Source: an uncultured Rhodobacterales bacterium (GTDB lineage Bacteria > Pseudomonadota > Alphaproteobacteria > Rhodobacterales > Rhodobacteraceae). From it: 29,226 nucleotides of DNA. A program made the position numbers and the translations under genes. Below are positions 91-29,226 of this stretch, in pieces (position 1 is the first letter of the stretch; each line of letters begins with the position of its first letter). Under the pieces are notes generated by a model. That model was given only the letters and a program-made list of their open reading frames with translations, made no database searches and was not told the DNA's origin. The stretch covers positions 1 to 29,226 of the forward strand of contig CAYWNJ010000001.1 of NCBI GenBank assembly GCA_964459535.1. Direction: 5' to 3'.

Positions 91-108
91 GGGCTGCTCC
101 CGGGCTAG
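88..108 (+). pseudogene. rmlA: Detached last six codons and stop of rmlA (K G L L P G stop)
   Basis: AAG GGG CTG CTC CCG GGC TAG directly follows the TA at the MITE end. It is in frame with ...TAT GGG GCC TAT CTA at 25014-25028 once the MITE is removed. Confidence 0.7.
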
Positions 109-136: not shown

Positions 137-160
137 AAATGTTTCGCGCGCGAAACATTT
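137..160. promoter_or_regulatory. Perfect 24-bp palindrome, putative parS centromere
   Basis: AAATGTTTCGCGCGCGAAACATTT overlaps the parB stop. It shares the TGTTTC/GAAACA arms of the canonical parS TGTTTCACGTGAAACA. Confidence 0.7.
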
Positions 161-7795: not shown

Positions 7796-8489
7796 TCGCT
7801 GACCTGACCCTAGCCCCACACGGGGACGCTTTCGGGCATAGCTCTGACGAATAGCGAATAACTAAAAACGGTCCGCCCGTATTGAGCAAAGGCGAAGGCC
7901 GATCCAAGGGTGAGAACTGGTGCACACCCGAGGTGGTCGTGTTATCAAGCGCCACATTCACTTGCGCATCACCGCTCTGGCCCCAGCCAAAGCCACCGAC
8001 GCGCAGCAATTTTCCAAAACGAGTATCATGCACATTGGATTGCACAGCATCTCCGGTGATGTAGCCATCGACCACCGCCCCTTGCCCCCATCTGGTGTGG
8101 TCCGGCTGAAAGGCTGCGGATCGTAGAAGGTGCGGAGGATCAGAAAAGACCCCGGTGGGGCGTTTTCCCGACAAACATGTTTGAGGGGGAGGCATCGCAG
8201 TGGCTGAAGATAACAGCGTAACCCATTGCCCAGCAGGCGATTGGGCAAAGCCAAATCTGCCGAGAGGCGGTCAGGCGACGAAGGGGACGGTTCGAGCACA
8301 ATGGCGCGTGACCCCAAGATTATCTTGTGGCAGGCTGCGGCGAACGCGGAGATCAGCGGTTCCAATGTGCAGGGTATGTTGCCCGAAGCCGTTGAAAACC
8401 AGCTTGCTGAAACAACGTCACCTTATCGCCTTGCAGCGACACTGGCGAGTTCCTAAACAACGGTTTATAGTACCAAGATTGGAACAAAC

Positions 8490-9902: not shown

Positions 9903-10089
9903 GGGAGATTTCAAGATCTAGGGCACTTCGCGCTAGGGTCCTGACCCTAGGCCGGGTGGCAGCGCATGACGTCGAGGGACATCCCGTTCCCATCTGTGCT
10001 GGATGTCAGAGACCAAGTGCATTATGCCCGATACAAACGAATCTTGTAGCGCTATTTCACCTGCAGCGTGCATGTTCTCCGGGGTTGTC

Positions 10090-12827: not shown

Positions 12828-13799
12828 GCCACGGCGTCGCCTTTTGCGGGGCTGGCGTGCGGGCTTTTTGACTTTAGCGTCAAGCGCGCTGAGAATCTGA
12901 TAAAGATTATTAAGCTCTTGCATACGTTGCCCATTTTGACTTTGTAAGGATGAGACCGCACGTTTGAGTTCGTCAATCTGAAGACGTTGGTTGTAAAGCA
13001 ACCGTGCCAGATCCGAGGTCTGCCTCGTCGTTGTCACATAGCGATCTCGCGCGTATTGCGGCTCTTTATCATAGCCAAAACGCGCCATGACGTCACCGCA
13101 TTGTGCCCATAGGTTGGCTTGTGTCTCTGGGCTAAGAAATTGGGTAAATCCGCCGCTCTGGCCGCTGCGGTTATGTTCGTTCACATCAGCATGGGCACGC
13201 CAAAAGGCCGCTTCTATCACCGCCTGGTTAAATGCCGCTGCATCTGGGCATAAACCGGTTTTTTGCACCACATCTTGCAGCCAAGTAATGGGATCATAAG
13301 CAATATCTTCATAGCGGTACAGTAATGTGTGCTCCGGTTCGCTAGATAGTACATCTAAATAATTTCTGGCATGAGCAAGGTAGTTCGCAATCTCGTCTTG
13401 TGCATAAGTGTCAAGATCACGCCTAATGTGGCGGCCGCGTTCATTAAGATCCGTTAACTGGCCTTCACGAAAAACCGAATGGATATGTCCGTACGCGAAA
13501 TATTGCGACACGACACAATCACGCAGATCACGCATCACGATGACTTTTTGGTACTTTTCCGTACGGAACCTTTCAAAGGCCGCATCATATTCGCGGAAGG
13601 GGCCGAATATGGCATTCTGTCTGGGAAGACGGTCATACGCCTCTGTCGGAATGTCGGACGTTCGCACACCGTTGTTATAGGCCTCTTCCAACGGATTATG
13701 TAATTCCCACCCACTGGAGAGTGCTAAAATGTGCATTAACCGCGCTGTTATCGAGCTACCACCCCGAATAAGTCCAAAAAGGACAACAGGTCTTGTCAT
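12813..13799 (-). CDS. Sulfotransferase-domain protein with C-terminal coiled-coil-like segment and basic tail
   Basis: KVIVMRDLRDCVVSQY is a 3'-PB-like motif, followed by LLYRYED and HNRSGQSGGF. The 5'-PSB-like GLIRGGSS is non-canonical. Confidence 0.75.
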   Translation of the reverse strand: MTRPVVLFGLIRGGSSITARLMHILALSSGWELHNPLEEAYNNGVRTSDIPTEAYDRLPRQNAIFGPFREYDAAFERFRTEKYQKVIVMRDLRDCVVSQYFAYGHIHSVFREGQLTDLNERGRHIRRDLDTYAQDEIANYLAHARNYLDVLSSEPEHTLLYRYEDIAYDPITWLQDVVQKTGLCPDAAAFNQAVIEAAFWRAHADVNEHNRSGQSGGFTQFLSPETQANLWAQCGDVMARFGYDKEPQYARDRYVTTTRQTSDLARLLYNQRLQIDELKRAVSSLQSQNGQRMQELNNLYQILSALDAKVKKPARQPRKRRRRGLSKM

Positions 13800-14323
13800 C
13801 GGTGCACTACCTTCTCAGAGTAATAAATATAGGGCGCAATCAGAAATCACCTACTTGTAAAGCCATACCGCCCCTCTAACAGGTTTTTACGCCAATCAAA
13901 TGACCTGCTCCCCGCTGGCCCTTCATTGATAACGAGAAATTGCCCGTTTGGGCAAGCGCGCAGGGTGCGGGGCTCTCAACTGACTCAACTGTCCGGCGGG
14001 CTCAGACGGGCGTTTGATTGCCAAGCGACAAATGTAGTCTGACCACTGCCCTCTCTCATCGAAACTGCGTTTCGACGGCCGGGCAGCGGGACAGGGTGTT
14101 GTGCAGCAATGTCACCAGAGGGGCGCTGTAACCGCATCGCCAGAGGGGGTCAGTTGCGGATGTACGAAAACGGCCCCCTCTTTGATAAAGTCATCGTACC
14201 AGCCAAATGAAACACAGTTTGAGGCGGAAACGACCATCTTGTAGCTATATCAGCGGGCGGTCCCCTTACGGACACGGCTTGGTGAGCTAAACGTACTATT
14301 TCGCCCCCAGCCGTAAGCGTCCC

Positions 14324-14986
14324 TTAACTGAGCATACGCATGTTTTGGTTATGGTGCGCGATACCTTCTTCGATGTCTTCATAATAGGTCATCTGCCCCT
14401 GATCTAGCACCGCGACCGCATTGCACAGCTCTCGCACCTGATCGACCGAATGCGTCACCACGACGGCACCAGAATATTTCATTCGCTCTAGGAAAACTTC
14501 GGAGCTTTTCGCGCGAAAGGCGGCGTCCCCCACGGCCGTAATTTCATCAACCAGATATGTATCAAAACCAATGCCCATCGACACCCCAAACGCCAAACGT
14601 GACATCATCCCCGAAGAGTAGGTCCGAAACGGTAACTTGAAATGCACACCTAGACCGGCAAAACTTTCAACAAATTCAATTAGTTCATCCGCATCCACCC
14701 CGTAAATGCGTGCGACAAAACGCGTATTCTGCGCCCCCGTTAGTTCACCGTGGAAAGAACCGGCAAAACCCACAGGCCATGAGATAGAGCCCGTGCTGAC
14801 AATCCGCCCAGAGGTTGGTTCATAAGTACCAGCAATCATCTCCAGAAGTGTCGATTTACCGGCCCCATTGCGACCCAAAAGCCCAACCGAGCTACCAGTG
14901 GGGAACACTGCGTTGATGTTGTCGGCCACAACCTTTTTGCGACCATGGAGATGGAAAACTTTGGTGACATTCTCAAACTTGATCAT
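14324..14986 (-). CDS. kpsT: Capsular polysaccharide ABC transporter ATP-binding protein
   Basis: 220 aa with Walker A GRNGAGKST, YSSGMMSRLAFG signature and YLVDEITAVGD..F. There is no C-terminal carbohydrate-binding domain. Confidence 0.93.
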   Translation of the reverse strand: MIKFENVTKVFHLHGRKKVVADNINAVFPTGSSVGLLGRNGAGKSTLLEMIAGTYEPTSGRIVSTGSISWPVGFAGSFHGELTGAQNTRFVARIYGVDADELIEFVESFAGLGVHFKLPFRTYSSGMMSRLAFGVSMGIGFDTYLVDEITAVGDAAFRAKSSEVFLERMKYSGAVVVTHSVDQVRELCNAVAVLDQGQMTYYEDIEEGIAHHNQNMRMLS

Positions 14987-15004
14987 GAACCCAAAGCCCC
15001 GTGT

Positions 15005-16309
15005 CTACCGGCGATCCTTAACTGAATAATAGATCAGCACCGCCGTTGCCCAGCCCAAGAACAGGAACAGGGAAATCAGGAACTGCAAAGACAACCGGTG
15101 TGGATATTCCGGAGTTTCAGCGATGGTCGGTTCAAGATAAGCGGCCAGATAACGGCTCTTACGACGGGCCTCCGTAAGAGCTGCGTCATAAGCGGCAAGA
15201 GCGGAAAGATAGGCGCGTTCTGCAAATTCGCGGTCAACGATTAATCGCTCATAATCGCCCACAACACCAGCCATCCCACGACCATCCGTATTGGATGTGA
15301 CGCTGTTAACACCCACCTTCGCCCGCTCGGCTTCAATCCGTTCGGCAATAACCTGCAAGCGTTGCTCTGCTCGAGCGATACGGGGATCACTGGCTAAGAC
15401 AGTGCTACGTAGCACATCAAGCTCAATCAACACCTCCGCTTGACGCACCTGCAAGCTGCCAACAAGGCCAGTTTGGTTGCGTAAATCGACCTCTGGATCG
15501 ATCATTTGATTTTCATTGCGAAAGCTTGTGACATTTTTTCGCGCTGTTCTGAGCCGGGCTTGTGCATCTTCCAGATCAGCCCGCGCATAAGAGATCGCAT
15601 CATCGCGCGCAATCGCGCTGAGATCATTGATGAGCTCAGCACTGCGCTCAAAAAGCATCGCTGTGATGGCATGAGCATCTTCCGGGGTAAAAGCACGCAC
15701 CTCTACATCGAGCAATCCCGAGCCGGCACCATAGGTGACGTGGACCATCTTGTTCCAATATTCGAGCAGTTCTTCGATCGAAGAATCTTGCTGTAAAGTA
15801 AAAACGACATCGTCCGCAGGCTTGCTCCAGATCGATCTCAGATCAAGCTGTGCGTCAATTTCCCGGACCAAACGCTGGCTCTTGATATACTTGAAAAGGA
15901 TGTCTGTATCATTTGAACTCGAACCAGAGAACTGAGTGAAACCACTTAGGAGCTCAAGCGGCGAGCTTGTTTCTTCACGGCGCACGGCAAAGCCCATACG
16001 CGAGGCATATTGGTCTGCGGCCCAGCCCCAAAGATAAATGCCCGTCCCACCCGATGGTGCGACCACAAACAGTAAAAACGTCAAAATCGTCAGCACATGA
16101 CGCGCGCGAATCCAACTGCGCCGCACTGGCGGAGGCACTTTGGAAACAAGAGGAGCCCCAGCGCCGCCCGTGCCCGTGTCGGGCAATATTTGAGAGGGTG
16201 CGCTTGGAATAGTTGGCGCAGGGAACGCAGGCGGAGGGGGCGCCTTGCGCGGCACGTTCCCTTCCGGGACAGAGCGCAAATGTGGTTGGCTGCCGTTTTG
16301 TCCGGTCAT
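15005..16309 (-). CDS. kpsE: Capsule export polysaccharide co-polymerase/adaptor (KpsE/RkpR type)
   Basis: Two TM segments flank a long coiled-coil region. Motifs AADQYAS...AVRREE and C-terminal PTIAETPEYPHR. Confidence 0.88.
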   Translation of the reverse strand: MTGQNGSQPHLRSVPEGNVPRKAPPPPAFPAPTIPSAPSQILPDTGTGGAGAPLVSKVPPPVRRSWIRARHVLTILTFLLFVVAPSGGTGIYLWGWAADQYASRMGFAVRREETSSPLELLSGFTQFSGSSSNDTDILFKYIKSQRLVREIDAQLDLRSIWSKPADDVVFTLQQDSSIEELLEYWNKMVHVTYGAGSGLLDVEVRAFTPEDAHAITAMLFERSAELINDLSAIARDDAISYARADLEDAQARLRTARKNVTSFRNENQMIDPEVDLRNQTGLVGSLQVRQAEVLIELDVLRSTVLASDPRIARAEQRLQVIAERIEAERAKVGVNSVTSNTDGRGMAGVVGDYERLIVDREFAERAYLSALAAYDAALTEARRKSRYLAAYLEPTIAETPEYPHRLSLQFLISLFLFLGWATAVLIYYSVKDRR

Positions 16310-16389
16310 TGGGCGTGTTGTGGGCTTTGATTTATGACCATAAAATGATGAATACCGTTTTCATGTCCATGTCAACAAGCGGGCGGGCG

Positions 16390-17199
16390 ATGACAGATGT
16401 AAATGCAGTTCCACCACGCGCGGACACGCGGCGGCGGTTTCGCATGCTAAGGGCGGTTTCTGCTTTGATGCTGCGCGAGATGAGCTCGAGCTATGGCCGC
16501 TCACCCGGAGGCTATATGTGGGCGATTTTGGATCCGGTGGGCGGTATCGCACTTTTATCGCTGGTCTTTGCTGCGTTTTTCGACAAGCCGCCGCTGGGCA
16601 TCAGCTTTCCCACTTTTTATGCTACGGGAATGCTTCTTTTTGGCATGTTCAATGATGTACACAGCAAAATTGCGCTGTCATTGCTCTACTCTAAACAGCT
16701 CTTGGCCTATCCGACAGTAACATTTGTCGATGCGATCCTCGCCCGCTTTATCCTCAACACGATGACCGAATGCCTCGTGGCCTATATCGTTTTCACAGTC
16801 TGTTTTGCTCTGTTTGAAACGCGAACAAATATGGACTTTCCCGTCATCTTACAGGCATGGGCTCTGACCGCTTACTTGGCGCTCGGGATCGGCACGCTGA
16901 ACTGTTACCTTTTTGCCCGCTTCGAGGTCATGCAGCGCGCTTGGTCGATCATGATGCGGCCAGGGTTTATTCTATCAGGGACATTTTTTATCTTTGATAC
17001 ACTGCCAGAGAAGTACCAGAACTGGCTGTGGTGGAACCCCTTGGTCCACAATATCGGTATATCGCGATCCGGGTTCTACAGCGAATATGATGCCGCATTC
17101 GCCTCTCCTACCTATGTGATCGGGTTGTCGACGATATGCCTTGTGACGGGGCTGATGCTGCTGCGTAGGCATTACCGAACACTGTTGAGCAATCACTGA
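16390..17199 (+). CDS. kpsM: Capsule ABC transporter permease
   Basis: LREMSSSYGRSPGGYMWAILDP and LWWNPLVH...RSGFY are ABC-2 motifs, and the protein is hydrophobic. The start is uncertain (16345-16390). Confidence 0.88.
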   Translation: MTDVNAVPPRADTRRRFRMLRAVSALMLREMSSSYGRSPGGYMWAILDPVGGIALLSLVFAAFFDKPPLGISFPTFYATGMLLFGMFNDVHSKIALSLLYSKQLLAYPTVTFVDAILARFILNTMTECLVAYIVFTVCFALFETRTNMDFPVILQAWALTAYLALGIGTLNCYLFARFEVMQRAWSIMMRPGFILSGTFFIFDTLPEKYQNWLWWNPLVHNIGISRSGFYSEYDAAFASPTYVIGLSTICLVTGLMLLRRHYRTLLSNH

Positions 17200-17371
17200 T
17201 CTGCCCGCTTTTTAAGCCTTTGGCCTAGCAACTGTATTTCTCAGAAGTGTTGCTTGGTCCAAGTTTGTCGGGATTTACAGAGCGCAGCAGCTAGGCCTTT
17301 TGTTCAACTTTACGGTTTGCTAAAGAAACCTCCAAGTTGAGGGGTAGCGAAACAGCCATGCGATTTAACAA

Positions 17372-18307
17372 ATGATATCATTGCAAAATAAGAAGATTTG
17401 GGTTGCGGGTCATCGAGGCATGGTGGGCTCTGCCATTGTCCGGCGCCTGGCCTCGGAGGATTGTGAGATCCTCACGGTGTCACGTTCTGAGGTCGACCTG
17501 CGTGACCGCAGTGCGGTGGATGCTTGGATTAAAGACGCACGGCCAGATATGGTCGTGCTCGCCGCGGCGAAGGTGGGCGGCATTCTGGCGAACGACAGCT
17601 ACCCGGTCGATTTTCTATACGAAAATCTGGCGATTCAGAACAATGTGATCACGCTAAGCCATACCCATGATGTGGAAAAGCTACTGTTCTTGGGCTCATC
17701 CTGCATCTACCCCAAAATGGCACCACAACCGATTACCGAAGATGCTTTGCTGACTGGTCCGCTAGAGCCAACAAACGAGTGGTATGCAATTGCAAAAATT
17801 GCAGGGATCAAATTGTGCCAGGCTTATATGAAACAATACGGCGCGCGGTTTGTTTCGGGTATGCCAACAAATCTCTATGGTCCCTATGACAATTTTGACT
17901 TGGCTTCTAGCCACGTGATCCCTGCGCTGATGCGCAAGGCGCATGAGGCTAAGCTTGCTGGTGAAGATGGGATGGAAATTTGGGGCACTGGCTCACCGCT
18001 GCGCGAATTCATGCATGTAGATGATTTGGCCGATGCCGCCGTCTATGTGCTACGTGCCTATGAAGATTATGAACATATCAACATGGGAAGCGGTGACGAA
18101 GTCTCAATTGCCGAGGTGGCGCAGTTGGTGATGCGCGTTGTCGGCACCTCGGGTCATCTACGCCATGATCTATCCAAACCCGATGGTACACCACGCAAGT
18201 TGATGTCAGCGGACAAGCTGAAGGCTGCAGGCTGGGAGCCCAAAATTACCCTCGAAGACGGCCTCCACAGCACCTACGAATGGTTCATGGAACATGTTGC
18301 GCAATAG
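17372..18307 (+). CDS. fcl: GDP-L-fucose synthase
   Basis: 311 aa with VAGHRGMVGSA, AAAKVGGI..N, LFLGSSCIYPK, YAIAK and MPTNLYGP..NF. Confidence 0.96.
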   Translation: MISLQNKKIWVAGHRGMVGSAIVRRLASEDCEILTVSRSEVDLRDRSAVDAWIKDARPDMVVLAAAKVGGILANDSYPVDFLYENLAIQNNVITLSHTHDVEKLLFLGSSCIYPKMAPQPITEDALLTGPLEPTNEWYAIAKIAGIKLCQAYMKQYGARFVSGMPTNLYGPYDNFDLASSHVIPALMRKAHEAKLAGEDGMEIWGTGSPLREFMHVDDLADAAVYVLRAYEDYEHINMGSGDEVSIAEVAQLVMRVVGTSGHLRHDLSKPDGTPRKLMSADKLKAAGWEPKITLEDGLHSTYEWFMEHVAQ

Positions 18308-18422
18308 CAGCTCGTCTATCCAGATTGCGATCTATCGCACTTATTTCCAGGCATACCGCAGCCATCTGCTTGGATGAAGAATACATGCAAAAGGCTGTGA
18401 GCACTCAAGATTGGACATACAT

Positions 18423-19436
18423 ATGAAAAAGGCATTTATCTCTGGCATCACAGGACAGGACGGTGCATATCTGGCTCAGCTTTTGCTGGAAAAGGGCTAT
18501 GAGGTGCATGGCGGCGTGCGCCGAATCTCGCAACCTGAGACCGTTCGTTTGGAGCAGGTCGGTGTGCTCAAAGATGTGACCCTGCACGAGCTTGATCTCT
18601 CCGAGATGATGAACATTTTCCGTCTCATTCGTGACGGTCAATATGACGAATTTTACAATCTTGCCGCGCAGAGCTTTGTTGGATCCTCTTGGGATCAGCC
18701 CATCTACGCTGCTGATGTGAACGGTGTTGCGGTGGCACGGATACTGGAGAGCATACGCTCCGTCTCGCCTCATACCCGTTTCTACCAAGCCTCCACCTCA
18801 GAGATGTACGGGCTGGTACAGGCGGTACCGCAATCGGAGACCACGCGCTTCTATCCCCGCTCACCCTATGGCGTGGCCAAGGTTTATGGCCATTATATCA
18901 CCGTAAACTTCCGCGAGAGTTTCGACATGCACGCCTCCTGCGGGATCCTCTTTAATCATGAGAGCCCGTTGCGCGGCAAAGAATTCGTGACACGCAAAAT
19001 CACTATGGCTCTCGCCAAGATGGCCCGGGGTGGCAGCGATACACTTGTGTTGGGCAATCTGGAGGCGCAGCGCGACTGGGGCTTTGCAGGTGATTATGTG
19101 GAAGGCATGTGGCGCATGCTGCAGCAAGACAGCGCTGATGATTATGTGCTCGCGACAGGAGTGACCACGCCAATCCGCGATTTTGTGAATTTCGCTGCCG
19201 CAGAGCTTGGCTTTGATATTGAATGGACAGGCGAAGGCATCGACGAAGTGGGCACCGACCGCAAGACTGGGAAAAAGCTGGTAGAGATTTCCGAGAAGTT
19301 TTTCCGCCCGGCGGAGGTGGACCTGCTCATTGGTGACGCAACCAAGGCACGCACTGCTCTTGGATGGGAGCCCAAAGTGGACGTACGCGCACTTGCCAAC
19401 ATGATGGCCAAAGCTGACTATGACGCGCTTGGTTGA
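18423..19436 (+). CDS. gmd: GDP-mannose 4,6-dehydratase
   Basis: ISGITGQDGAYLA, YNLAAQSFV, QASTSEMYG, PRSPYGVAK and GILFNHESPLRG.EFVTRKI. Confidence 0.97.
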   Translation: MKKAFISGITGQDGAYLAQLLLEKGYEVHGGVRRISQPETVRLEQVGVLKDVTLHELDLSEMMNIFRLIRDGQYDEFYNLAAQSFVGSSWDQPIYAADVNGVAVARILESIRSVSPHTRFYQASTSEMYGLVQAVPQSETTRFYPRSPYGVAKVYGHYITVNFRESFDMHASCGILFNHESPLRGKEFVTRKITMALAKMARGGSDTLVLGNLEAQRDWGFAGDYVEGMWRMLQQDSADDYVLATGVTTPIRDFVNFAAAELGFDIEWTGEGIDEVGTDRKTGKKLVEISEKFFRPAEVDLLIGDATKARTALGWEPKVDVRALANMMAKADYDALG

Positions 19437-22047
19437 ACAGACCCAACCACACCCCAAACTGACCAGCCGGGTCGCGGCTCTCTTGCCGGCAACCCTGCGT
19501 CGTAAATTATCTGAACTGCGCGCAGCATCTCGAAAATCAGCAGAAGCGCGCAGTACAGCGCCCTATCGCGGCAACCTCGAAGGCGTTAGCCCCGAAGGCG
19601 TCCTGACGGGCTGGGTATTTGATAAAGAAAACCGCACGGGTCGTATACTTGTAGGGCTCTATGCCGGGGAAACTTTGGTCGAAACGGGAACAGCCCAGTT
19701 TCGGCGCGATGATGTTGCAGCGGCCCATGGGTGTGATGCGACCTGCGGGCTGCGCTTTGCCATTGGTGAGCAGCTGCTTGTCAAGTTACGCGATCATGCT
19801 GGGGTGTTATCCGTGCGCACCATGTCGGCAGAACCGTTCGAGATCGGTTCCGTTACATTGAAAGTTGATGACTCGGATCCGCCGGTTGGAGAGAGCGATA
19901 TTGGCTTTTTGGCCCATGTTCTCAAACCTGATCTCGACGCTCTGTTGGCAGCGTTGGAGGCTATACCTGAAAACGTGGCAGCGCCCGGCCCTGTCCGTCA
20001 TCCGCCCTTTGTCCCTCATGGCAAGATGTTCCAGACGGAACAGATCATACCCGAAATCCCTATCTCGGGTCAGCCCGCGTATATGGATTACGTGCGCTAT
20101 CGTTATCGTAAAGACGAGGAGTTCGCGGTAGCCCCTGGCCATGATGCGGCGGATCGCTATTTGTATTGGTATATTACCACATACCGCTCGCGCGAAAATC
20201 GGCGTGTGCCATTAGGCGCGGAACAGATTGCATATCTAAACGCGCCGATGGTGATGGGGGGACAGCAATATGTTCTGAGCCGTGCGATCTGGTGGCGGCT
20301 TCTAGAACGTTCAGATCTTTTGGGTAAGCTAAACCTGAACAATCGCGATGCGTACCACGACATACTCTTTTGGTGGGCCTATTCGGACTGCCCAACGCTC
20401 TATCTTGAAGATTGCCTGGTGCCGGACCGGTTTGCCGATCAACTGCGAGGCGTGCACCCCTCGCGCCGCTTTGACGCCTATCCGTTGAGTTATTTCACGG
20501 AGCGATATTTTCATGAGAACCCGGCTCTGCACCGGCTTGATGCCGGCAGTGCTCAAGGGCGTAAGACGCTGGTGCTGTGCATGCTGCTCCGCGCAATACA
20601 GCGCCCTGATTTGCTGCGCTATATCCCCTCAGGTTTGATCACCCAATTGCTGGCACCTGGTACCGACAACATGCCAAGTGCCTTAGAAAATTTTGTCCAC
20701 GATTTACGCTCTGCTGTATCCGAGGTCGCAACAGACACCCCAACCCGTCTGTCACTGAGCGCTGAGCGCTATATGCACATGCTGCGCACGGCGCAGTTTG
20801 ATCTGGCCTCGCGCCGCTTTCTGACCATTTCGCCAGCAGGGCACCGCTTTGAAGCGGCCGCGATGCCGGCCCCACGAGAAAGCGCCGATCTGCCGACGGT
20901 CGATGTACAATTGATCGGCCCACTGGCCAAGGCGTCAGGCCTAGGTCAGGCGACGCGCCTATCGGCGGATATCTTGCGTGCCACGGGTTTGTCTTTGCGC
21001 TGCGTAGACTTTGATCTCGATAATCCTGCGCCCGAAGGCTTTAGTTCCGATGCTCAAATAGACGAATACGGTCCGGCGCAAATTAACTTGATTCATCTTA
21101 ATGCCGAATCCACGCCACTTGCATTTGCCTATCAACCCGATGTGTTTTCGGGGCGCTATAATGTGGGCTACTTTTTTTGGGAGCTCGACCGCCCCGCTTA
21201 TTGCCATTACTTAGGTATGGATTTGCTGGATGAGATCTGGGTCTGCACCGAATACGGTGCTGCGGTCTACAGCCGAGATGATCATGACAAACCGGTGGTC
21301 AATGTCGGGATGTGTTATGAAAACATACCCGATATCGCCCGGACCGACAGCCGTGCTTTTGTGGAAGAGCGGTTTCTTTTCACCAAAGAGCATTTTATCT
21401 GCCTGGTCGCCTTTGACAGTTTCTCCTTTGTCCAGCGTAAAAACCCGGTAAATGTCCTGCTCGCGTTCCAGAAAGCGTTTGAAGGCGTTCCCGAAGCGCG
21501 GCTGGTGATCAAAACACAGAACCGCGATAGTGTCTTTGACCTTGTGCAAATGCAGCTGTGGGAACAGGTAGACCGTATTGTCGCCGAAGATCCTCGATTG
21601 GTCATCATGAATGAAACGCTCAGCTATCGTGACGTCTTGAGGCTTAAGGCCGGATGCGATTGCTATGTCACCTTACACAAATCTGAAGGTTGGGGGTTTG
21701 GCATGATCGAAGCGATGAACCTGGGCGTGCCTGTCGTATGCACAGGCTATTCAGGCAATATGGACTTCTGCACACCCCAAACAGCATGGTTGGTTGATTA
21801 CGAAGAAACGCCGCTGGAGCAAGATGATTACATCTTTGTGCGCAAAGGCTCGCGTTGGGCCGAGCCCGATATCGCTTCGGCCGCTGCTCAGCTGCGTGCG
21901 GTTTACGATGATCCCGCCGCGCGGGCCGCTAAGGCAGATGCGGCACAAACCATGATCCGCAACGCATTTTCATGCGACGCAATTGCAAAGCGTTATGGCA
22001 ATCGCCTACGTGAAATCCTTGCTATGCTGGACCATAGCACGCCATAG
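19420..22047 (+). CDS. Large multidomain glycosyltransferase with C-terminal GT4 domain
   Basis: 875 aa with C-terminal FFWEL, RKNP, SEGWGFGMIEAM.LGVPVVCTGYSGNMDF. It overlaps the gmd stop by 17 bp. Confidence 0.87.
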   Translation: MTRLVEQTQPHPKLTSRVAALLPATLRRKLSELRAASRKSAEARSTAPYRGNLEGVSPEGVLTGWVFDKENRTGRILVGLYAGETLVETGTAQFRRDDVAAAHGCDATCGLRFAIGEQLLVKLRDHAGVLSVRTMSAEPFEIGSVTLKVDDSDPPVGESDIGFLAHVLKPDLDALLAALEAIPENVAAPGPVRHPPFVPHGKMFQTEQIIPEIPISGQPAYMDYVRYRYRKDEEFAVAPGHDAADRYLYWYITTYRSRENRRVPLGAEQIAYLNAPMVMGGQQYVLSRAIWWRLLERSDLLGKLNLNNRDAYHDILFWWAYSDCPTLYLEDCLVPDRFADQLRGVHPSRRFDAYPLSYFTERYFHENPALHRLDAGSAQGRKTLVLCMLLRAIQRPDLLRYIPSGLITQLLAPGTDNMPSALENFVHDLRSAVSEVATDTPTRLSLSAERYMHMLRTAQFDLASRRFLTISPAGHRFEAAAMPAPRESADLPTVDVQLIGPLAKASGLGQATRLSADILRATGLSLRCVDFDLDNPAPEGFSSDAQIDEYGPAQINLIHLNAESTPLAFAYQPDVFSGRYNVGYFFWELDRPAYCHYLGMDLLDEIWVCTEYGAAVYSRDDHDKPVVNVGMCYENIPDIARTDSRAFVEERFLFTKEHFICLVAFDSFSFVQRKNPVNVLLAFQKAFEGVPEARLVIKTQNRDSVFDLVQMQLWEQVDRIVAEDPRLVIMNETLSYRDVLRLKAGCDCYVTLHKSEGWGFGMIEAMNLGVPVVCTGYSGNMDFCTPQTAWLVDYEETPLEQDDYIFVRKGSRWAEPDIASAAAQLRAVYDDPAARAAKADAAQTMIRNAFSCDAIAKRYGNRLREILAMLDHSTP

Positions 22048-22056
22048 GATCAGACC

Positions 22057-23829
22057 ATGTCAAAGCGTTCATCAAAGCCGCGCTTGGTAATTCACCTAGG
22101 CTTGCACAAAACCGGCTCCAGTTCACTACAGCATTGGCTATTACGTCATCAAACGGTGCTAGACCCACACCTGGCCTGTTATAACCTCGCAGACGGCAGC
22201 TCCAACTCAATTAAATTCGCAGCTCAAGCACTGGTGCTGGGCCAATTGACAATGGCAGGGTATCGCCAGCACGTAACCGAGTGGTTGCCTGTTTTTGACG
22301 CCATTGAACACCCAGCGATTTTATTGACTGACGAAGGGCTTTTGGGCCTGCCGATAGGATCGGTAACAGGTGACTATCACGAAACTGGTTTTTATCCTTT
22401 CGCAGCATCTATTGTAGAAGTTTTTGCTGAGGTTTTTGTTGAGTATGACCCCATTTTTGTTGTGATGCAGCGTGATACAGAAACTTGGTTACGCTCAATA
22501 CACAACCAAATGTATAGGCAAGGCTATGCCAGCAATAACTTTGATGAATTTGCCGCCGACCATGCAGGCAAGATAGATTGGTCGTCTTTGGTCGCGACTT
22601 TGGAAGCCACGATTGCTCATGGCGGGAAAGGGCGCGGCCGGCTTGAGGTGTTACAGTTCGAAGAAGAGTTTGCCACCGAAACCGTCTCTGACATGGGGTT
22701 TTTTCAAATTCTGGGTCTCCCTCCAGATCTAATGTCTCAATGCGAGCCGACCTTGCCTCACATCAATAGGTCACTTCCGATTTCAGTGCTGAATGTGCCA
22801 AAGCGCCCTGTGATGTTACTAGGCGCGCAAAATTCGATGCTGGAAGGCGGTTGGGTGAACCTGATGCGTCGCCAATTCGAAACTATGGTTGAGGTCACAA
22901 ACTTATCAGTGCTCTCATGTTCGAGCGCAACGGCGCTCTACCGCTTTATTAGTCATCAAAATCGCCCGGAGGATGAGGCGGTATTCTGGGAATACGGACA
23001 AAACGAATTTGACCATATGCAAGCTGGTCAAACATTAGAGAGCATACTCTATCATGTTGAATGGCTGATCCAACAATGCATTCGTCAGCAACGGCCCTTT
23101 GTCCCGGTGTTGATGAGTACCTGCACTCAGATGAGCTTTGGTGACGATCCTTGCCTGTCGGGTCTACGTCGGCTTTTTGAAGCCTATAAAATCAATTATG
23201 TGGATGTGCCTACACTGCTGTCTGTATTGGGCCGTGGGTCAGTGGACTTGGCACATTGGTATGCTGATGACACCTATTACAATGTATTGACTGAGTTGCC
23301 CGTGCGCGTGGCCGAGCAAGCAATGTTGACACTGCTCAAAGCTCAGCCGCCCGTGCAGATCCCAGAGCGTGCGGCGCATTTTGAAGGGCGTGACCTGGTA
23401 CTCGTCTACCCTGATGGAGGCGCGCATGAGGTATTCGACAATGGTGCCATTCGCCTTCCTTTTGAGGCCTATAAAGACGACTCACTTCGCTTTTCGATTA
23501 GTGGACATGTGATGGCTGCCGTGATTGTAACCACAGGCGCAGGACCTGCAGTATCAATTGAGATTGATGACATTCCTCTGCCCGGCATCTGGTCGACTCA
23601 GGTCGATTATGGAGATGATGCCCCCATACAGCACGTACGTCAGTTGGTGCTACCGGGTCAAACCGGTGTAGACACTGCAAGTTCAGTGACCGTACGCGCT
23701 TTGCAAAGCACGGAGCAAGCGCCAAAATTACAGTCAGGCTATGTTTGGAAAACGTCAGACGCGACAGCGATGTCAGCACATCGTATGAACGGAGTTTCAG
23801 CATTGGTCGCGGAAATTTTTCAAGCCTAA
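22057..23829 (+). CDS. Fusion of an N-terminal sulfotransferase-fold domain and a C-terminal SGNH-hydrolase-like domain
   Basis: N-terminal VIHLGLHKTGSSSLQ. From ~22800 there are SGNH-like blocks LLGAQNS, NLSVLSCSS, WEYGQNE and YADDTYY. Confidence 0.65.
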   Translation: MSKRSSKPRLVIHLGLHKTGSSSLQHWLLRHQTVLDPHLACYNLADGSSNSIKFAAQALVLGQLTMAGYRQHVTEWLPVFDAIEHPAILLTDEGLLGLPIGSVTGDYHETGFYPFAASIVEVFAEVFVEYDPIFVVMQRDTETWLRSIHNQMYRQGYASNNFDEFAADHAGKIDWSSLVATLEATIAHGGKGRGRLEVLQFEEEFATETVSDMGFFQILGLPPDLMSQCEPTLPHINRSLPISVLNVPKRPVMLLGAQNSMLEGGWVNLMRRQFETMVEVTNLSVLSCSSATALYRFISHQNRPEDEAVFWEYGQNEFDHMQAGQTLESILYHVEWLIQQCIRQQRPFVPVLMSTCTQMSFGDDPCLSGLRRLFEAYKINYVDVPTLLSVLGRGSVDLAHWYADDTYYNVLTELPVRVAEQAMLTLLKAQPPVQIPERAAHFEGRDLVLVYPDGGAHEVFDNGAIRLPFEAYKDDSLRFSISGHVMAAVIVTTGAGPAVSIEIDDIPLPGIWSTQVDYGDDAPIQHVRQLVLPGQTGVDTASSVTVRALQSTEQAPKLQSGYVWKTSDATAMSAHRMNGVSALVAEIFQA

Positions 23830-24268
23830 TGGGGCCGCTTTCAGCAGTTGGCGAAATAGTCACTTAGGCTCGACCCAGGAATGAATATCCCGATTACCCA
23901 AGGACAAACTCTGCGATGTACCCAGACACCCAGTATTGTCGATTTCAAACCGCCATACGGACAATACACCTGATGCCCCATCGATGCTGTAGGAAACCCC
24001 AGATCGTGTGCTCACAAATAGGCCAGGGCCCACGCAATCGGCAACCCTAACCCACTATTTTCAATGTCGAACTCTACCGACCGAGCATATGCAAGCGCAC
24101 TCATGTCTCTATTCACCCCCACGGCTTAATGCCTTCAGGAGCTATCGAGTGGCTGTGGGTATAGGATTTTCACTACAGGTGCAGTGATCTTCTTGCGCTC
24201 AGACCATAAGAGAGGGTTTGTCCGCTTCCGTCTATGATTTTCGCGTATCCGTCCACTCAAACGAAGGA

Positions 24269-24304
24269 CAGCCAAACGCGCGTATTGCTTGGAACAGGAA
24301 TCAA
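24269..24304 (-). pseudogene. tnpB: First 12 codons of IS66 tnpB
   Basis: TTG start overlapping the tnpA stop, translating (M)[11 protein letters not shown], the typical TnpB N-terminus. It then jumps to the right-end sequence. Confidence 0.75.
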
Positions 24305-24717
24305 GTGGTCAAACCTTGAACAAGGCAAACAACTGCCGTCAGCGCAGTCGACCCTTCAACCAAAATACGTCGTCCATCCGACAAAGTGATGTCCACCCGG
24401 GTGGCGGACAGACCGCCAGCGACCACGGCCATGCCCGTGTTCGGCAGAACAGGGGGATCAGAGGCAACGGCAACTTCAAGAAAGTCAGAAACCTCAATGT
24501 CATTCTCAGACAAAGGCCCGGATGGCACAAATCGAGGATCACGCAACCACTTGTGGATCAGATTGGCATTCATCGAATATCGACGTGCAACCTGCGCTAC
24601 CGAAACCCCGGAAACACGCGCCTGGTTGCAAATCGATTGCTTCTCATCATCCGACCAAAAACGCTTCTTCTGGCCCTTCTTGCCCGCCATAGAGTGCCTC
24701 AAGATGTCCACTATCAA
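24301..24717 (-). CDS. tnpA: IS66-family accessory protein TnpA (HTH)
   Basis: [14 protein letters not shown]...[27 protein letters not shown]...[14 protein letters not shown]. The start may be 24690. Confidence 0.88.
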
Positions 24718-24776
24718 TGGTGGACACTATCACCACACTCCTAGCCGCGTCAGAGCAGGGAAACCGGACGGATACG

Positions 24777-25028
24777 CTGATACTGGCGGGGATCCAAGAG
24801 ATTTGCGTGATCACCACGCCCCAGGACCAGGCCCAGTTTCAGCGCACGCTGGGGGATGGCAGCCAAATGGGGGATCCGCCTGAGCTATATCGAGCAGCCC
24901 TCTCCGAACGCCAAGGCCAACAGGTGGGCTGCCCCGAGGAGATCGCGTTTGAGCAGGGTTGGATCAGCGCGGACCAACTGGCCGAGCGCGCCGGGCTTTT
25001 CGCCAAGACGCAATATGGGGCCTATCTA
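24777..25028 (+). pseudogene. rmlA: Shattered glucose-1-phosphate thymidylyltransferase (rmlA/rfbA)
   Basis: The N-part reads [30 protein letters not shown], then [13 protein letters not shown] after a 1-nt shift. It is fused to the C-part [23 protein letters not shown]...YGAYL. Confidence 0.9.
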
Positions 25029-25130
25029 GCGCTTGTTTTGTTCAATCGGAAAAATGAAACATTCAAATTCGCGTTCGAGGCAAAGCCGAGAGGCAGCGCA
25101 TTTGAATTCAATTTAACAAAACACGCTCTA
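25027..25130 (+). mobile_element. Right, complete copy of the MITE-like element (100 bp between TA dinucleotides)
   Basis: Terminal inverted repeats TAGCGCTTGTTTTGTTCAAT (25027-25046) and the reverse complement of 25111-25130 (TAGAGCGTGTTTTGTTAAAT) match 17/20. It has an internal hairpin and TA at both ends. Confidence 0.8.
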
Positions 25131-25276
25131 AAGCGCCCGATCTCAAAATTGAGGCGTTCTACGACGACAATTCGGATGGCACCCGCCCCGTGGGGGCGAA
25201 GCTACCCAGCGCAACAGCGACTGTTGCGCGTAAGATGTGTGCGAAGCGAGAGGCTTCAGATCAAAAGTTGGATGCT

Positions 25277-25597
25277 TTAGGCAGCTTCGGCCTGTTGCGC
25301 AGCATTGCGGCGCTCGGATTCCTCGCGAGACAAGGCGACCGAGGTGCGCACACCCTTGCCAACGAAGTCCATCAAACCCTCGACAACGCGCTCATTGGGG
25401 TCAATCCCGGCGCAGCTAAGCACTTCGCGGCCATCGCGAGAGCGGGCCCAGCGGGCAATTTGCTCAGGTCCATTTCCATATTTCTTATCATCGGCGATTG
25501 CATCGTCGAGCGCAGCCAAGACAACCGCTGCAAAGAGTTTACGGGCACGATTGCCTTGTTCGTGATTAAAGGCCGTACCATCAACGAAATCTTTCAT
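25277..25597 (-). CDS. Conserved Rhodobacterales small protein (DUF6280-like)
   Basis: 106 aa, [34 protein letters not shown]. The family name comes from recognition, not from a search. It is divergent from efp. Confidence 0.8.
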
Positions 25598-25815
25598 TCG
25601 CTGTCCATCCTTATTCTTGCTCTTGTGTTTTAGGCGTAGGTGCCCTTATGGCGTATCTTCAACGATTCGGATACCCCAAAACTGCATGGCTCCCTTGCAT
25701 TGCCTGCATAGCTGGAGCGTATCACTTACGAGATATCGCGATATTGCACCGCGCTACACATCAAGATATAGGCGGTGCTCAAGTTTCTTCAATCTTTTGC
25801 CACGGTTTTGCCACA

Positions 25816-26379
25816 ATGCCAAAAATCAACGGGAACGAGATTCGCCCAGGAAATGTGCTGGAGCATAATGACGGCCTATGGGCGGCTGTAAAGGTGGATC
25901 ACGTGAAGCCGGGTAAGGGCGGTGCCTTTGCCCAGGTCGAGCTGCGCAACCTGCGGAATGGCTCCAAGCTGAATGAGCGGTTTCGCAGCGCAGACAAGGT
26001 CGAACGCATTCGGCTTGAGCAAAAGGATCAGCAATTCTTGTACGAAGCGGACGGGATGCTGACCTTTATGGACACCGAAACCTACGAGCAGATTGAGCTT
26101 TCTGCGGATTTGCTTGGTGAGCGGCGGCCCTTTCTTCAGGACGGGATGACGATTGTCGTCGAGTTTTATGAGACCGAGGCTCTGAATGCGACATTGCCGC
26201 AAAAGGTGACCTGTAAAGTGGTCGAGACCGAGCCGGTTGTGAAAGGTCAAACCGCTGCAAACAGCTTTAAGCCTGCGATTTTGGACAACGGGGTAAAGGT
26301 ATCGGTGCCACCGTTTGTTGGGCAAGACGAGGACATTATCGTCAACACCGAGACATTTGAGTATGTCGAACGGGCGTAA
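25816..26379 (+). CDS. efp: Elongation factor P
   Basis: 187 aa from [12 protein letters not shown], with loop [10 protein letters not shown] and C-terminal [15 protein letters not shown]...VPPFV. Confidence 0.97.
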
Positions 26380-26382
26380 GCT

Positions 26383-26673
26383 CTAGGTCTCACCGTCTTC
26401 CTGCTTGCGAAGTTGGGCGCGCGCGCCTGGGTCGATCACTGCCCGTTGCTTCAGCCTTGCTGCGCGGGCCCGTAGCGCCGCAAGGCGCGCGGTGCTGTCG
26501 ATCTCGGGCTCAGAGGTCGCCTTTGCCTGTTCTGTTTGGGCTCTAAGCGCCCCGAGCGGTAGCAAAGATGGGTACTCTGAGGCGCGTGTATTCTCAATAA
26601 TCGATTGATCAAGCTCAGGCACTTCGGCGCAAGCCGCAAGTAATATCGGTATCAAGAACATTGCACGCTGCAT
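26383..26673 (-). CDS. Small putative lipoprotein
   Basis: Short signal peptide with lipobox LLAA-C. Confidence 0.65.
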   Translation of the reverse strand: MQRAMFLIPILLAACAEVPELDQSIIENTRASEYPSLLPLGALRAQTEQAKATSEPEIDSTARLAALRARAARLKQRAVIDPGARAQLRKQEDGET

Positions 26674-26750
26674 GGGCAGAGCTTGCCTGAGCCTCCTGCG
26701 CGTTGCAAGGCTTGGCTTTACAAACCTGTTTCGGTAGGGCTGGCGCTACA

Positions 26751-27329
26751 ATGGCACGAACGATGGGTTCACATTCCGACATAACCGGCCCGCGTGTGCG
26801 CGCGGCGGCGCTTCGGTTATTTGCGGATGCAGGCTATGCGGCGGTTTCTATGCGGCAGATCGCGTCGGCCGTTGGCGTTCAGGCCGGGGCGCTTTACAAT
26901 TACATACCTGACAAGCAGTCGCTGCTTTTCGAACTTATGCGCACCCATATGGCAGAGCTTTTATCGGCGCTCCCCGAACGCAGCGGCGCTGTTGAGGCAG
27001 ACCTCGAAGCATTTGTGCGCTTTCACATCTCGTTTCATCATGCGCGGCCCGAGGCGGTCTTTATCGCTTATATGGAGTTGCGCAGCCTTGAGCCGGAAAA
27101 TTTCAAACATATCGAAAAGATGAGGAAGACTTATGAGGACCATCTTGAAGAGATCTTACGAGATGGGGTGGAAACAGGCGGTTTCATGGTCCGAGACCCT
27201 AAGATCACGGCGATGGCGGTTATCGCCATGCTTACCGGGGTCAATACCTGGTTTCGCGACAAAGGTCGGCTGAGCCTGGCGCAGGTACAGGATATTTATT
27301 GGGCGATGGTGCGGCGCGCGGTTGGATGA
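26751..27329 (+). CDS. TetR/AcrR-family transcriptional regulator
   Basis: HTH segment AALRLFADAGYAAVSMRQIASAVGVQAGALYNYIPDKQSLL. The start is placed at MARTMGSHS. Confidence 0.92.
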   Translation: MARTMGSHSDITGPRVRAAALRLFADAGYAAVSMRQIASAVGVQAGALYNYIPDKQSLLFELMRTHMAELLSALPERSGAVEADLEAFVRFHISFHHARPEAVFIAYMELRSLEPENFKHIEKMRKTYEDHLEEILRDGVETGGFMVRDPKITAMAVIAMLTGVNTWFRDKGRLSLAQVQDIYWAMVRRAVG

Positions 27330-27346
27330 CGCTGCACATAATAAAA

Positions 27347-27507
27347 CCTGACGACTGAACTTTGATCTTGTATCCGCTTAGACCCCAGCCATCCGTAGGA
27401 TGGCAACGCGCCGACCGCCCCCACGGGCGGCGCGTACCGCGCCACCCTCGGTCGGCTTGAGCAAAGCGGAAACGATTAAAGATTGATATCAAAATTGAGT
27501 CGTCAGG
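27347..27507. repeat. Second, unrelated MITE/REP-like element (161 bp)
   Basis: 20-bp terminal inverted repeats CCTGACGACTGAACTTTGAT vs CCTGACGACTCAATTTTGAT match 18/20. Nested inner IRs and a GC hairpin CCGCCC-CCAC-GGGCGG. It sits between convergent genes. Confidence 0.7.
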
Positions 27508-27551
27508 CTATATGTTCAGGGCGATCTCCCTTAGGTTCAAGGCCAGGCGCT

Positions 27552-28283
27552 CTAATCCGCCGCTGCCCAGGTTGGCGGCAGAATATGCGGCGGCGCTTTA
27601 AGCAAAATCCGGCGTGAGTGCGAGGCAAACTCGCGCCGCGCAATCACCGCGCAGGTAAAGCCCGTCGCAATCAGCAGCGCCAGCGGCCCGATTAGCCACG
27701 CCACGGTTGCCAGCGCGAAGTAAACGGCGCGCAGGCCGCGATTAAAGGCCCGCGCGGCAGTGATGTTGATCTCTGCCGCTTGCGCCGCGCGCGGCGCACA
27801 GAGCGCATCATCCCGGTCATTCGGAACCGCCGCCATCAGAACCGAGGCATAACCAAAGAGCCGATTGGACCACACAAACTTCAAAAACGCGCTCGTCAAA
27901 AAGAGCGCAACAAACACCAGCTTGATCTCCCAGACAAAGGCCGGATCTGCGATCAGCAACAGCTCGCCCGCTATCCCCGTCAGCGCATCCGCATTCGTCA
28001 TCAGCGCGAGCGTGCCGCCAAGGGTCAGCATTGAGGTCGAGGCGAAAAAGGCCGTGCCTTGCCGCAAGCTGCCCACGATTTGCGCATCGAAAACCCGCAC
28101 CTCGCGGGTAATCAGTTGCTGCATCCACGCGCGCCGAAAGTCAGCCATAAGTTGCGACATCGACGGCCACCGTGCGGGCGCGTTCTCGATGATCCAGCTC
28201 AGCAACGCCCAGCTGCCCACCGCCAGCGAAATTGCAACGTAGTCCAGCAGCGCAAAATGAGAAAGCCGATCCATCCAAGTCAT
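27552..28283 (-). CDS. DUF599-like membrane protein
   Basis: 243 aa from MTWMDRLSHF, with R.RWM...REVRVFDAQIVGSLRQGTAFFASTS and FNRGLRAVYF. Several TM segments. Confidence 0.82.
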   Translation of the reverse strand: MTWMDRLSHFALLDYVAISLAVGSWALLSWIIENAPARWPSMSQLMADFRRAWMQQLITREVRVFDAQIVGSLRQGTAFFASTSMLTLGGTLALMTNADALTGIAGELLLIADPAFVWEIKLVFVALFLTSAFLKFVWSNRLFGYASVLMAAVPNDRDDALCAPRAAQAAEINITAARAFNRGLRAVYFALATVAWLIGPLALLIATGFTCAVIARREFASHSRRILLKAPPHILPPTWAAAD

Positions 28284-28326
28284 ACCGGCCTGATAGGCGA
28301 AGATCTGAGCACTTGCCAGGGCGAAA

Positions 28327-28351
28327 AATTGGTAATATAAACTTACCAATT
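28327..28351. promoter_or_regulatory. Putative GntR/FadR-family (GlcC-like) operator
   Basis: Perfect 9-bp inverted repeat AATTGGTAA-N7-TTACCAATT, abutting the glcD RBS. Confidence 0.6.
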
Positions 28352-28362
28352 GGAGATTGCCT

Positions 28363-29226
28363 ATGGAAATGCCCCACCCCAGCGCTGAAATTATCGCGCG
28401 CAAAGCTGCCCTTGTGAAACGTTTGGAGGCGGTCTTGCCCCCCGGCGCTGTGATCAGCGACAGCAATGAGACCCGCGCCTATGAATGCGACGCGCTCACG
28501 GCGTATAAGTGCCCGCCGCTTGCCGCTGTCTTGCCCAGCACAACCGAAGAGGTGGCGGCGGTTCTGCGCATTTGCCACGAAGAGCAAGTACCCGTCGTGC
28601 CGCGCGGCTCGGGCACCTCGCTGGCAGGCGGGGCCTTACCCACGGCCGATTGCGTCATCCTTGGGGTGGCGCGCATGAATGCCGTGCTGGAAACGAACTT
28701 CGCCGACCGCTATGTGCGCGTGCAGTCCGGGCGCACAAACCTCAGCGTGACCGGCGCGGTTGAGGGGGATGGGTTCTTTTACGCCCCCGACCCCTCCTCG
28801 CAGCTGGCCTGCGCGATTGCCGGGAATATCGCCATGAATTCAGGCGGCGCGCATTGCCTGAAATATGGCGTGACCACGAACAACCTGCTGGGCGTTACAA
28901 TGGTGACGATGGAGGGTCGCGTGGTCGAGCTGGGCGGCGCTTATATGGATGCAAGCGGGCTGGACCTTTTGGGGCTGGTCTGCGGCTCTGAAGGGCAGCT
29001 TGGCGTCGTGACCGAGGCGGTCTTGCGCATTCTGCCCAAACCCGAGGGCGCGCGCCCCGTGCTGATCGGCTTTGACGATGCAGAGATCGCGGGCGCTTGC
29101 GTGTCGGACATTATAAAAGCGGGCGTTCTGCCCGTCGCCATCGAGTTTATGGACCGCCTGTGCATCCAAGCTTGCGAAAACTTTGCCAAAGCGGGCTATC
29201 CCGATTGCGCCGCCCTGCTGATCGTC
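28363..29226 (+). CDS. glcD: Glycolate oxidase FAD-linked subunit GlcD (runs off the window end)
   Basis: Absent from the ORF track because there is no stop in the window. Manual translation gives MEMPHP...YECDALTAYKCPP...PRGSGTSLAGGA...PDPSSQLACAIAGNIAMNSGGAHCLKYGVT. GGAG RBS upstream. Confidence 0.9.
   Translation, partial: MEMPHPSAEIIARKAALVKRLEAVLPPGAVISDSNETRAYECDALTAYKCPPLAAVLPSTTEEVAAVLRICHEEQVPVVPRGSGTSLAGGALPTADCVILGVARMNAVLETNFADRYVRVQSGRTNLSVTGAVEGDGFFYAPDPSSQLACAIAGNIAMNSGGAHCLKYGVTTNNLLGVTMVTMEGRVVELGGAYMDASGLDLLGLVCGSEGQLGVVTEAVLRILPKPEGARPVLIGFDDAEIAGACVSDIIKAGVLPVAIEFMDRLCIQACENFAKAGYPDCAALLIV

Follow-up and report, generated by a model that had tools for sequence, protein, structure and literature searches.

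The stretch at 24777-25028, together with 21 nt at 88-108, is a pseudogene of rmlA that carries four lesions. It lies in a window (the whole stretch of DNA analysed, 29,226 nt) that takes up the entire contig C1. No contig of the MAG is longer, the assembly being fragmented (3.06 Mb in 668 contigs, 86% complete). Our reading, to which we give a probability of about 0.7, is that the pseudogene is a non-functional remnant of an rmlA that was once the last gene of an rmlC-B-D-A operon facing parS/parB on a RepA-I-type roseobacter plasmid, in a host that keeps a complete, probably chromosomal, rmlCBDA. What the stretch shows is a redundant plasmid gene in ordinary decay; a pathway has not been lost. 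RepA-I plasmids with a rhamnose operon decide the surface attachment of many roseobacters. The positions of the features are collected in Table 1.

Table 1. Positions of the rmlA relic, its lesions and the neighbouring plasmid genes in the window.
Feature	Position	Strand	Remarks
rmlA, last six codons and stop (KGLLPG*)	88-108	+	match to Tateyamaria RmlA C-terminus
Palindrome ATGTTTCGCGCGCGAAACAT, 20 nt	139-158		between rmlA stop and parB stop; putative parS
parB	159-1163	-	within 159-2591
parA	1200-2591	-	within 159-2591
repA	3033-4046	+	PF10134; RepA-I clade
manC (GMP/PMI), intact	8490-9902	+	TIGR01479, 584 bits (cut-off 373)
KpsT/Wzt-like ATPase	14324-14986	-	part of exporter 14324-17199
KpsE-like protein	15005-16309	-	part of exporter 14324-17199
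KpsM/Wzm-like permease	16213-17199	+	part of exporter 14324-17199
fcl, intact	17372-18307	+	NF047922, 513.5 bits (cut-off 500)
gmd, intact	18411-19436	+	TIGR01472, 437.8 bits (cut-off 415)
Spacer, 413 nt	23830-24242		between last cargo gene and mini-IS66; no rml homology
mini-IS66	24243-24777	-	535 bp; both inverted repeats and tnpA only (ORF 24301-24717, minus strand); tnpB, tnpC deleted; truncates rmlA at about codon 40
rmlA relic, N-terminal piece	24777-24906	+	about codons 40-84; +1 A at 24865-24867; TIGR01207 and alignments
Deletion junction CCCTCTCCG	24898-24906	+	nine bases align to both the QPSP side and the TLSE side of intact genes
rmlA relic, C-terminal piece	24900-25028	+	TIGR01207 and alignments
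MITE	25027-25130		104 bp; TA at both ends; six codons before rmlA stop; right third different from the copy at 1-87

Two parts of the relic are matched by TIGR01207, the NCBIfam model of rmlA. The first match covers 24774-24872 (model positions 39-71, E 4e-8, 33.5 bits) and the second 24894-25034 (model positions 237-283 of 286, E 2e-10, 41.1 bits). Both scores are far under the curated cut-off of 360.65 bits and the matches are therefore fragments; the rmlA gene on another contig of the MAG, C326, reaches 449.6 bits. The N-terminal GGxGTRL nucleotide-binding loop and the central sugar-phosphate-binding core, which a full-length RmlA has in a single open frame, are not found in the relic. Codons 1-39 are missing with the IS66 derivative in their place, codons ~85-242 are deleted and the frame is shifted at 24865-24867. 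A profile search of the window gave no rmlB, rmlC or rmlD, as had been claimed in an earlier note made from the letters of this DNA, and an Rfam scan placed no family above threshold anywhere in the window. The same note had listed the four lesions of rmlA, i.e. an IS at the 5′ end, an extra A, an internal deletion and a MITE, and all of them are real. Any single one of the four suffices to kill the gene.

The element at the 5′ end has perfect terminal inverted repeats of 12 nt. Its sole ORF encodes an IS66-like accessory TnpA (NF047595; 75.1 bits, cut-off 74). Contig C587 has a relative with the full tnpA-tnpB-tnpC set, in which both TnpB and the IS66 transposase were found. Since its terminal inverted repeats recur in autonomous copies and it has the accessory gene for TnpA, mini-IS66 is a non-autonomous member of the IS66 family. 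The IS terminus ...CCGGACGGATACG is common to three copies (that of the relic and those on C587 and C79), and homology to rmlA begins at the very next base. The replacement of the rmlA 5′ end by this element, with the loss of the first ~39 codons, is thus confirmed. An 8-bp target-site duplication is absent at mini-IS66; the flanks TGATTTTC and TGATACTG agree at 5 of 8 positions, and the mismatch fits the replacement of one flank via deletion or recombination. In the 413-nt spacer to the left of the IS, no homology to rmlD or rmlA was found above shuffled controls. Neither the profile search nor the comparison with shuffled controls gave a remnant of rmlD, rmlB or rmlC to the left of the IS. 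Since the spacer has no similarity to rml genes, the upstream part of the operon is gone and not just displaced.

At the site of the frameshift the relic reads CAGCCAAATGGGG (CCAAATGGGG), as against CCA[A/G]TGGGG in all the aligned intact homologues (12 in one alignment and nine more in a second). The extra A suspected near 24865-24867 is thereby established as a +1 insertion. The two pieces of the relic span 252 nt here and 726 nt in every intact homologue, from which about 475 nt are lost, and a large internal deletion at ~24899-24906 had been correctly noticed. The suggestion that the heptamer CTCTCCG had served as microhomology stood in part only. The junction does align to both sides of the deleted segment, but the exact heptamer is present at both sites in no intact homologue. 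An exact CTCTCCG at both deletion ends was consequently ruled out; what the intact homologues share is CCCT and an imperfect repeat of ~10 nt. The intact homologues available are no nearer than about 85%, too distant to fix the ancestral sequence at the deletion ends. From the aligned sequences a microhomology-mediated deletion in rmlA is plausible but not proven. Together, the +1 A and the ~475-nt deletion restore the reading frame.

The element in the 3′ end of rmlA has terminal inverted repeats of 20 nt (consensus TAGAGCTTGTTTTG...) and, in most copies, TA at both ends. In this genome it gives 58 BLAST matches, and has 32 full-length copies besides many partial ones. It is short, does not code, ends in inverted repeats, has the TA duplicated and is present many times, and is thus a MITE; the MITE claimed for the 3′ end of rmlA is borne out and lies at 25027-25130.

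The nearest relatives of the relic are the rmlA genes of two Tateyamaria contigs, L048 and L049, with 83.3% and 81.7% nucleotide identity; these two genes are 80.6% identical to each other, i.e. less than the relic is to either. Towards the intact rmlA on C326 the DNA identity is about 75-77% (74.9% in one comparison). The differences of the relic are distributed over the three codon positions as 6/10/28, and those between the two functional Tateyamaria genes as 10/7/34. Because this pattern is like that between working genes, the inactivation is recent relative to the divergence. By this measure the gene was under selection through nearly all of its divergence and died recently.

The end of the reading frame is found at the other end of the contig. 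When the MITE and one TA are taken out, ...YGAYL at 25028 continues as AAG GGG CTG CTC CCG GGC TAG at 88-108 (KGLLPG*); the RmlA of Tateyamaria sp. 1078 has the C-terminus YGAYLKGLLP*. The first 55 nt of C1 are identical to 25044-25098, and the following 35 nt have three mismatches. Exact overlaps of 55 nt are also seen between C273 and C326 and between C326 and C601, and 106 of the 1336 contig ends share a 55-mer with another end, which indicates that the assembly was made with k=55. From the terminal rmlA codons at the contig start and the 55-nt identity it follows that C1 runs once round a plasmid unit of 25,043 bp (88-25130) and exits inside the MITE. This exit may be an assembler mis-join of a free plasmid, or the plasmid may be integrated by MITE x MITE recombination. 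The right-hand 4 kb of C1 carry chromosome-type genes whose counterparts lie at three different loci in every one of three congeners; in 25131-29226 either the genome is rearranged or there are further repeat-mediated mis-joins. The genes in this part are DUF6280-efp, TetR, and DUF599 with an FAD oxidase, efp being the only copy in the MAG. A genus-wide repeat of ~100 nt lies at 27374-27477. A second short repeat family with GC-rich hairpins is represented at 25183-25281 of the window (decayed, about 80%) and at 3258-3359 of C326 (L046). The left 8.3 kb of the plasmid gave, in a DNA search of three congeners, no match save one of 32 nt (E 6e-4) in one of them; the plasmid is accordingly accessory.

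The replicase places the plasmid in a known family. RepA is 85% and 84% identical to those of the two Tateyamaria contigs, 72% to that of the 52-kb plasmid of M. algicola DG898 and 68% to that of pPGA1_65. A quick ML tree puts it together with the Tateyamaria replicons and with L051 (SH-aLRT 96-97), and those three all have rmlCBDA within 10 kb. The group is nested in a 100%-supported clade with P. inhibens pPGA1_65 and the M. algicola 52-kb plasmid, in a tree which leaves the RepA of contig C60 (43%) and RepAs of 48-52% outside the clade and has no typed RepA-II, -III or -IV among its outgroups. The replicase thus groups with typed RepA-I replicases, and parAB is divergent from repA, as in RepA-I plasmids. 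Like biofilm plasmids, the plasmid has a polysaccharide ABC exporter, whose genes are counterparts of genes #40-42 of pPGA1_65; of the intact rmlCBDA expected of a biofilm plasmid, it has a relic of rmlA only. In six close relatives wzm ... rmlC-B-D-A is followed by parB and parA on the opposite strand, and these by repA. Their rmlA converges on parB, which is at most a few dozen bases away from the rmlA stop and in some cases only a few, and the relic is at the same spot. The descent from an rml-carrying RepA-I biofilm plasmid proposed earlier is upheld by the RepA tree, the synteny towards parB and the closest rmlA of the relic, which all agree.

The palindrome between the rmlA stop and parB is perfect. 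It occurs once in the window, and 24 related loci have it either next to parB or in the parA-parB interval, i.e. 22 loci of RepA relatives and the contigs C380 (L043, 649-668) and C40 (L045, 4214-4233) of the MAG. From its position in these loci it is probably the parS centromere of the RepA-I plasmid family. At least three RepA-type replicons are present in the MAG, on C1, C40 and C60. The proteins of C40 are 66% (RepA), 79% (ParA) and 52% (ParB) identical to those of the plasmid and its RepA lies inside the RepA-I clade; that of C60 (L134), 43% identical, lies outside. The presence of two RepA-I replicons in a single bin points either to several strains or to incompatibility groups that are narrow.

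The cargo of the plasmid is a polysaccharide cluster at 4125-23829 with glycosyltransferases, manC, two or three sulfotransferase-like genes, the exporter, fcl and gmd. ManC, Gmd and Fcl, the set for GDP-L-fucose synthesis, are each full-length and above the NCBIfam equivalog cut-off. The KpsT/KpsE/KpsM-like exporter is the one shared with biofilm plasmids. The cargo proteins have their best matches on L058, L060, L065 and L074 (44-77%), which are other RepA-I plasmids: 75-77% for fcl, 53-77% for the exporter and 40-57% for the glycosyltransferases. The Tateyamaria contigs L048 and L049 match the backbone only, apart from a weak match to the exporter; the Tateyamaria-type parts are the backbone (parB, parA, repA, parS) and the 3′-proximal third of rmlA. 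As the backbone is of Tateyamaria type and 4125-23829 is like the cargo of other RepA-I plasmids, the relic marks the boundary of a cargo replacement, and the IS66 derivative sits exactly on that boundary. To judge from these matches, the plasmid seems to combine a backbone of Tateyamaria type with the cargo of another RepA-I plasmid, and the IS66 derivative inside rmlA is the site of one breakpoint.

The earlier note had taken the rhamnose pathway to be destroyed and had proposed a search of the rest of the genome for rml genes. This search found a complete operon, and the claim does not hold: an intact rmlC-B-D-A, linked to housekeeping genes, is present on C273/C326 of the same MAG. On C326 rmlC, rmlB, rmlD and rmlA are all above the NCBIfam cut-offs; the start of rmlC (~48 codons) is on C273, which is joined to C326 by an exact overlap of 55 nt. 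The last 55 nt of C326, which are unique, overlap C601, whose genes for a thioredoxin-TPR and a Lon-N-domain protein are both housekeeping. A repeat just downstream of rmlA on C326, the copy at 3258-3359 named above, has 142 matches in the MAG, several of them 98-100% identical, and is 85-96% identical in congeners; as it also occurs in the rest of the genome, the contig belongs to this organism. The possibility that the operon is a contaminant was rejected on the identity of 98-100% between this repeat and other copies in the genome. A location of C326 on another RepA replicon was likewise discarded, there being no link to parB, parA or repA and the contig walk leading to housekeeping genes. 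The operon on C273/C326 is probably chromosomal, a location that is deduced from one unique 55-mer link. At only 75-77% DNA identity, its rmlA is a separate, older copy and not the source of the relic. Two points count against our reading. The proteins of the intact operon are nearer to those of Tateyamaria plasmid operons (RmlA 86-88%) than to those of the operons of congeners (75-77%). Moreover, the MAG represents a population, is 86% complete in 668 contigs and has at least three RepA-type replicons, and the plasmid and the intact operon could come from different cells of it.

The rmlC of this operon is split at a 55-mer vertex of the graph between the end of C273 (L044) and the start of C326 (L046), a sign that the sample may contain another rmlC-like sequence or a variant strain. 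Between rmlB and rmlD, several of the roseobacter rml operons include an insertion or an additional gene (L048 4726-5430, L049 4698-5404, L142 6007-7815 and L047 5411-6013); the C326 operon has none, and in pPGA1_65 the gene between rmlB and rmlD is annotated as a metal-dependent hydrolase.

A course of events can be proposed for the decay. An IS66-associated deletion or recombination would have removed rmlC, rmlB and rmlD along with ~39 codons at the start of rmlA. About 475 nt would next have been lost by slippage from one short CCCT...CCG repeat to another, a run of A would have gained one base, and a TA-targeting MITE would have inserted near the rmlA stop. The loss of rml would have been tolerated because the host retains a complete, probably chromosomal, rmlCBDA; the tail of rmlA may persist because it abuts the parS palindrome, and the relic would now be without a role. 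We infer the order of the four events and the part of IS66 in the truncation, with neither a target-site duplication nor a second IS copy to prove the mechanism of deletion.

The earlier note had gone on to suggest a swap of rhamnose for fucose, in which the organism would have lost dTDP-rhamnose synthesis and the plasmid-encoded surface glycan would have moved from rhamnose to mannose/fucose chemistry. The plasmid copy of rml is indeed dead while manC, gmd and fcl are intact. In the two Tateyamaria genomes whose backbones are nearest, rmlCBDA lies on the plasmid, and a search at E<=1e-30 gave no Fcl anywhere; in addition, fcl-gmd-GT-sulfotransferase fills the slot from wzm to rmlA that is held by rmlCBD in these relatives, and the cargo is like that of other RepA-I plasmids. 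These observations support the swap in part only. dTDP-rhamnose can still come from the second operon, which is intact, shares a genome-specific repeat with the rest of the MAG and connects to housekeeping genes. The archetypal biofilm plasmid pPGA1_65 carries rfbCBDA along with manC, fcl, gmd and a sulfotransferase, and from this coexistence the two modules are not alternatives in the RepA-I family. The sugar make-up of a glycan and the donor sugars of glycosyltransferases are not readable from sequence. A loss of rhamnose synthesis with a move to mannose/fucose chemistry is therefore considered unlikely; judged on gene content, the sugar switch would at most be an exchange of plasmid cargo.

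Retention of the relic for a function, either as a chimeric protein of 187 aa or as a spacer or terminator protecting parS, is still more doubtful. The +1 insertion and the 475-nt deletion restore the frame, leaving a single open frame at 24717-25280 (187 codons), which starts with an ATG within the IS on the strand opposite to tnpA and crosses both rmlA pieces and the MITE. On C380, too, the tail of another, independent rmlA lies 19 nt from the same palindrome by a parB end. Against this, restoration of the frame is expected by chance in one case out of three, the product would have neither the N-terminus that binds the nucleotide nor any of the sugar-binding core, and would run through the MITE, and there is no sign that it is conserved. 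Protection of parS accounts for the survival of the tail and not for a function. The ORF is probably meaningless. That the lesions are artefacts of assembly, from collapse of strain variants or chimeric joins, is very improbable. The assembly is highly fragmented with overlaps of k=55, the contig exits the plasmid inside the MITE and the right-hand 4 kb lead to three separate loci per congener, all of which could speak for such joins. However, a 9-nt microhomology is too short to give a false join in a k=55 graph, which means that the deletion was not made by the assembler; the IS and the MITE have clean ends, with termini common to other copies, and one genuine lesion of the four would leave the gene dead. 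Decay of a redundant plasmid rmlA thus remains the reading that we prefer.

The tail on C380 (L043) is seen at 640-770 on the minus strand. It consists of the last ~24 codons and the stop of another rmlA, convergent on the end of a parB which is 55% identical to the parB of C1, and a GT4 and a GT2 gene lie upstream. Two plasmids of one population that keep only an rmlA tail beside parS would fit selection against deletions reaching the centromere. A more tentative idea, which we hold to be possible rather than probable, is that the rmlA-parS-parB junction is a recurrent breakpoint of cargo exchange among RepA-I plasmids, where glycan cassettes would have been swapped repeatedly up to, and never through, the centromere, with mobile elements making the cuts and the chromosomal rml making the loss cost-free. 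If so, the relic would show a very recent stage in the diversification of surface glycans on biofilm plasmids.

As it stands, the relic is an added example of known biology and raises no new question. A plasmid with a freshly erased operon, in a host with a second one, illustrates the turnover of glycan cargo by IS, MITE, slippage and exchange with sister plasmids, and it cautions that a pseudogene on a plasmid is not to be taken as the loss of a pathway. The plasmid is a small mosaic member of a known family, and the relic is ordinary but well documented.

Among the members of this family, the two Tateyamaria contigs have the closest backbones: NZ_JBNFZM010000012.1 of Tateyamaria sp. 1078 (48 kb) and NZ_CANNES010000012.1 of an uncultured Tateyamaria (118 kb), with 85/84% for RepA, 84/86% for ParA and 66/65% for ParB. 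Both share with the plasmid the order rmlA stop, parS-like palindrome, parB stop at the junction, and the C-terminus YGAYLKGLLP*, and their rmlA genes are the nearest to the relic (83/82% nt). They differ in having an intact rmlCBDA and a cargo that is unrelated save for a weak exporter match (about 40%). The plasmid pPGA1_65 of P. inhibens DSM 17395 (NC_018288.1) resembles the one described here in its RepA-I replicase (68% aa), ParA (80%) and ParB (48%), in the KpsT/KpsE/KpsM-like exporter (60/42/43%), in manC, fcl and gmd (62/55/49%) and in the lack of conjugation genes. It is, however, 65 kb long with an intact rfbC-B-(hydrolase)-D-A away from parB, whereas the plasmid here has 25 kb, an rmlA relic alone by parB and other glycosyltransferases. 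Massive recombination between replicons was described by Michael et al. 2016 (PMC5030684), who found the rhamnose operon on 22 of the 35 RepA-I plasmids analysed; RepA-I replicons without rml are thus already known. The RepA-I loci L060 and L065 (RepA 73-74%) have an fcl of 75-77% identity and homologues of three of the glycosyltransferases found here, and no rml within 10 kb. In contrast to the known rml-less RepA-I plasmids, the plasmid described here still shows the operon it has lost, as an rmlA broken four times.
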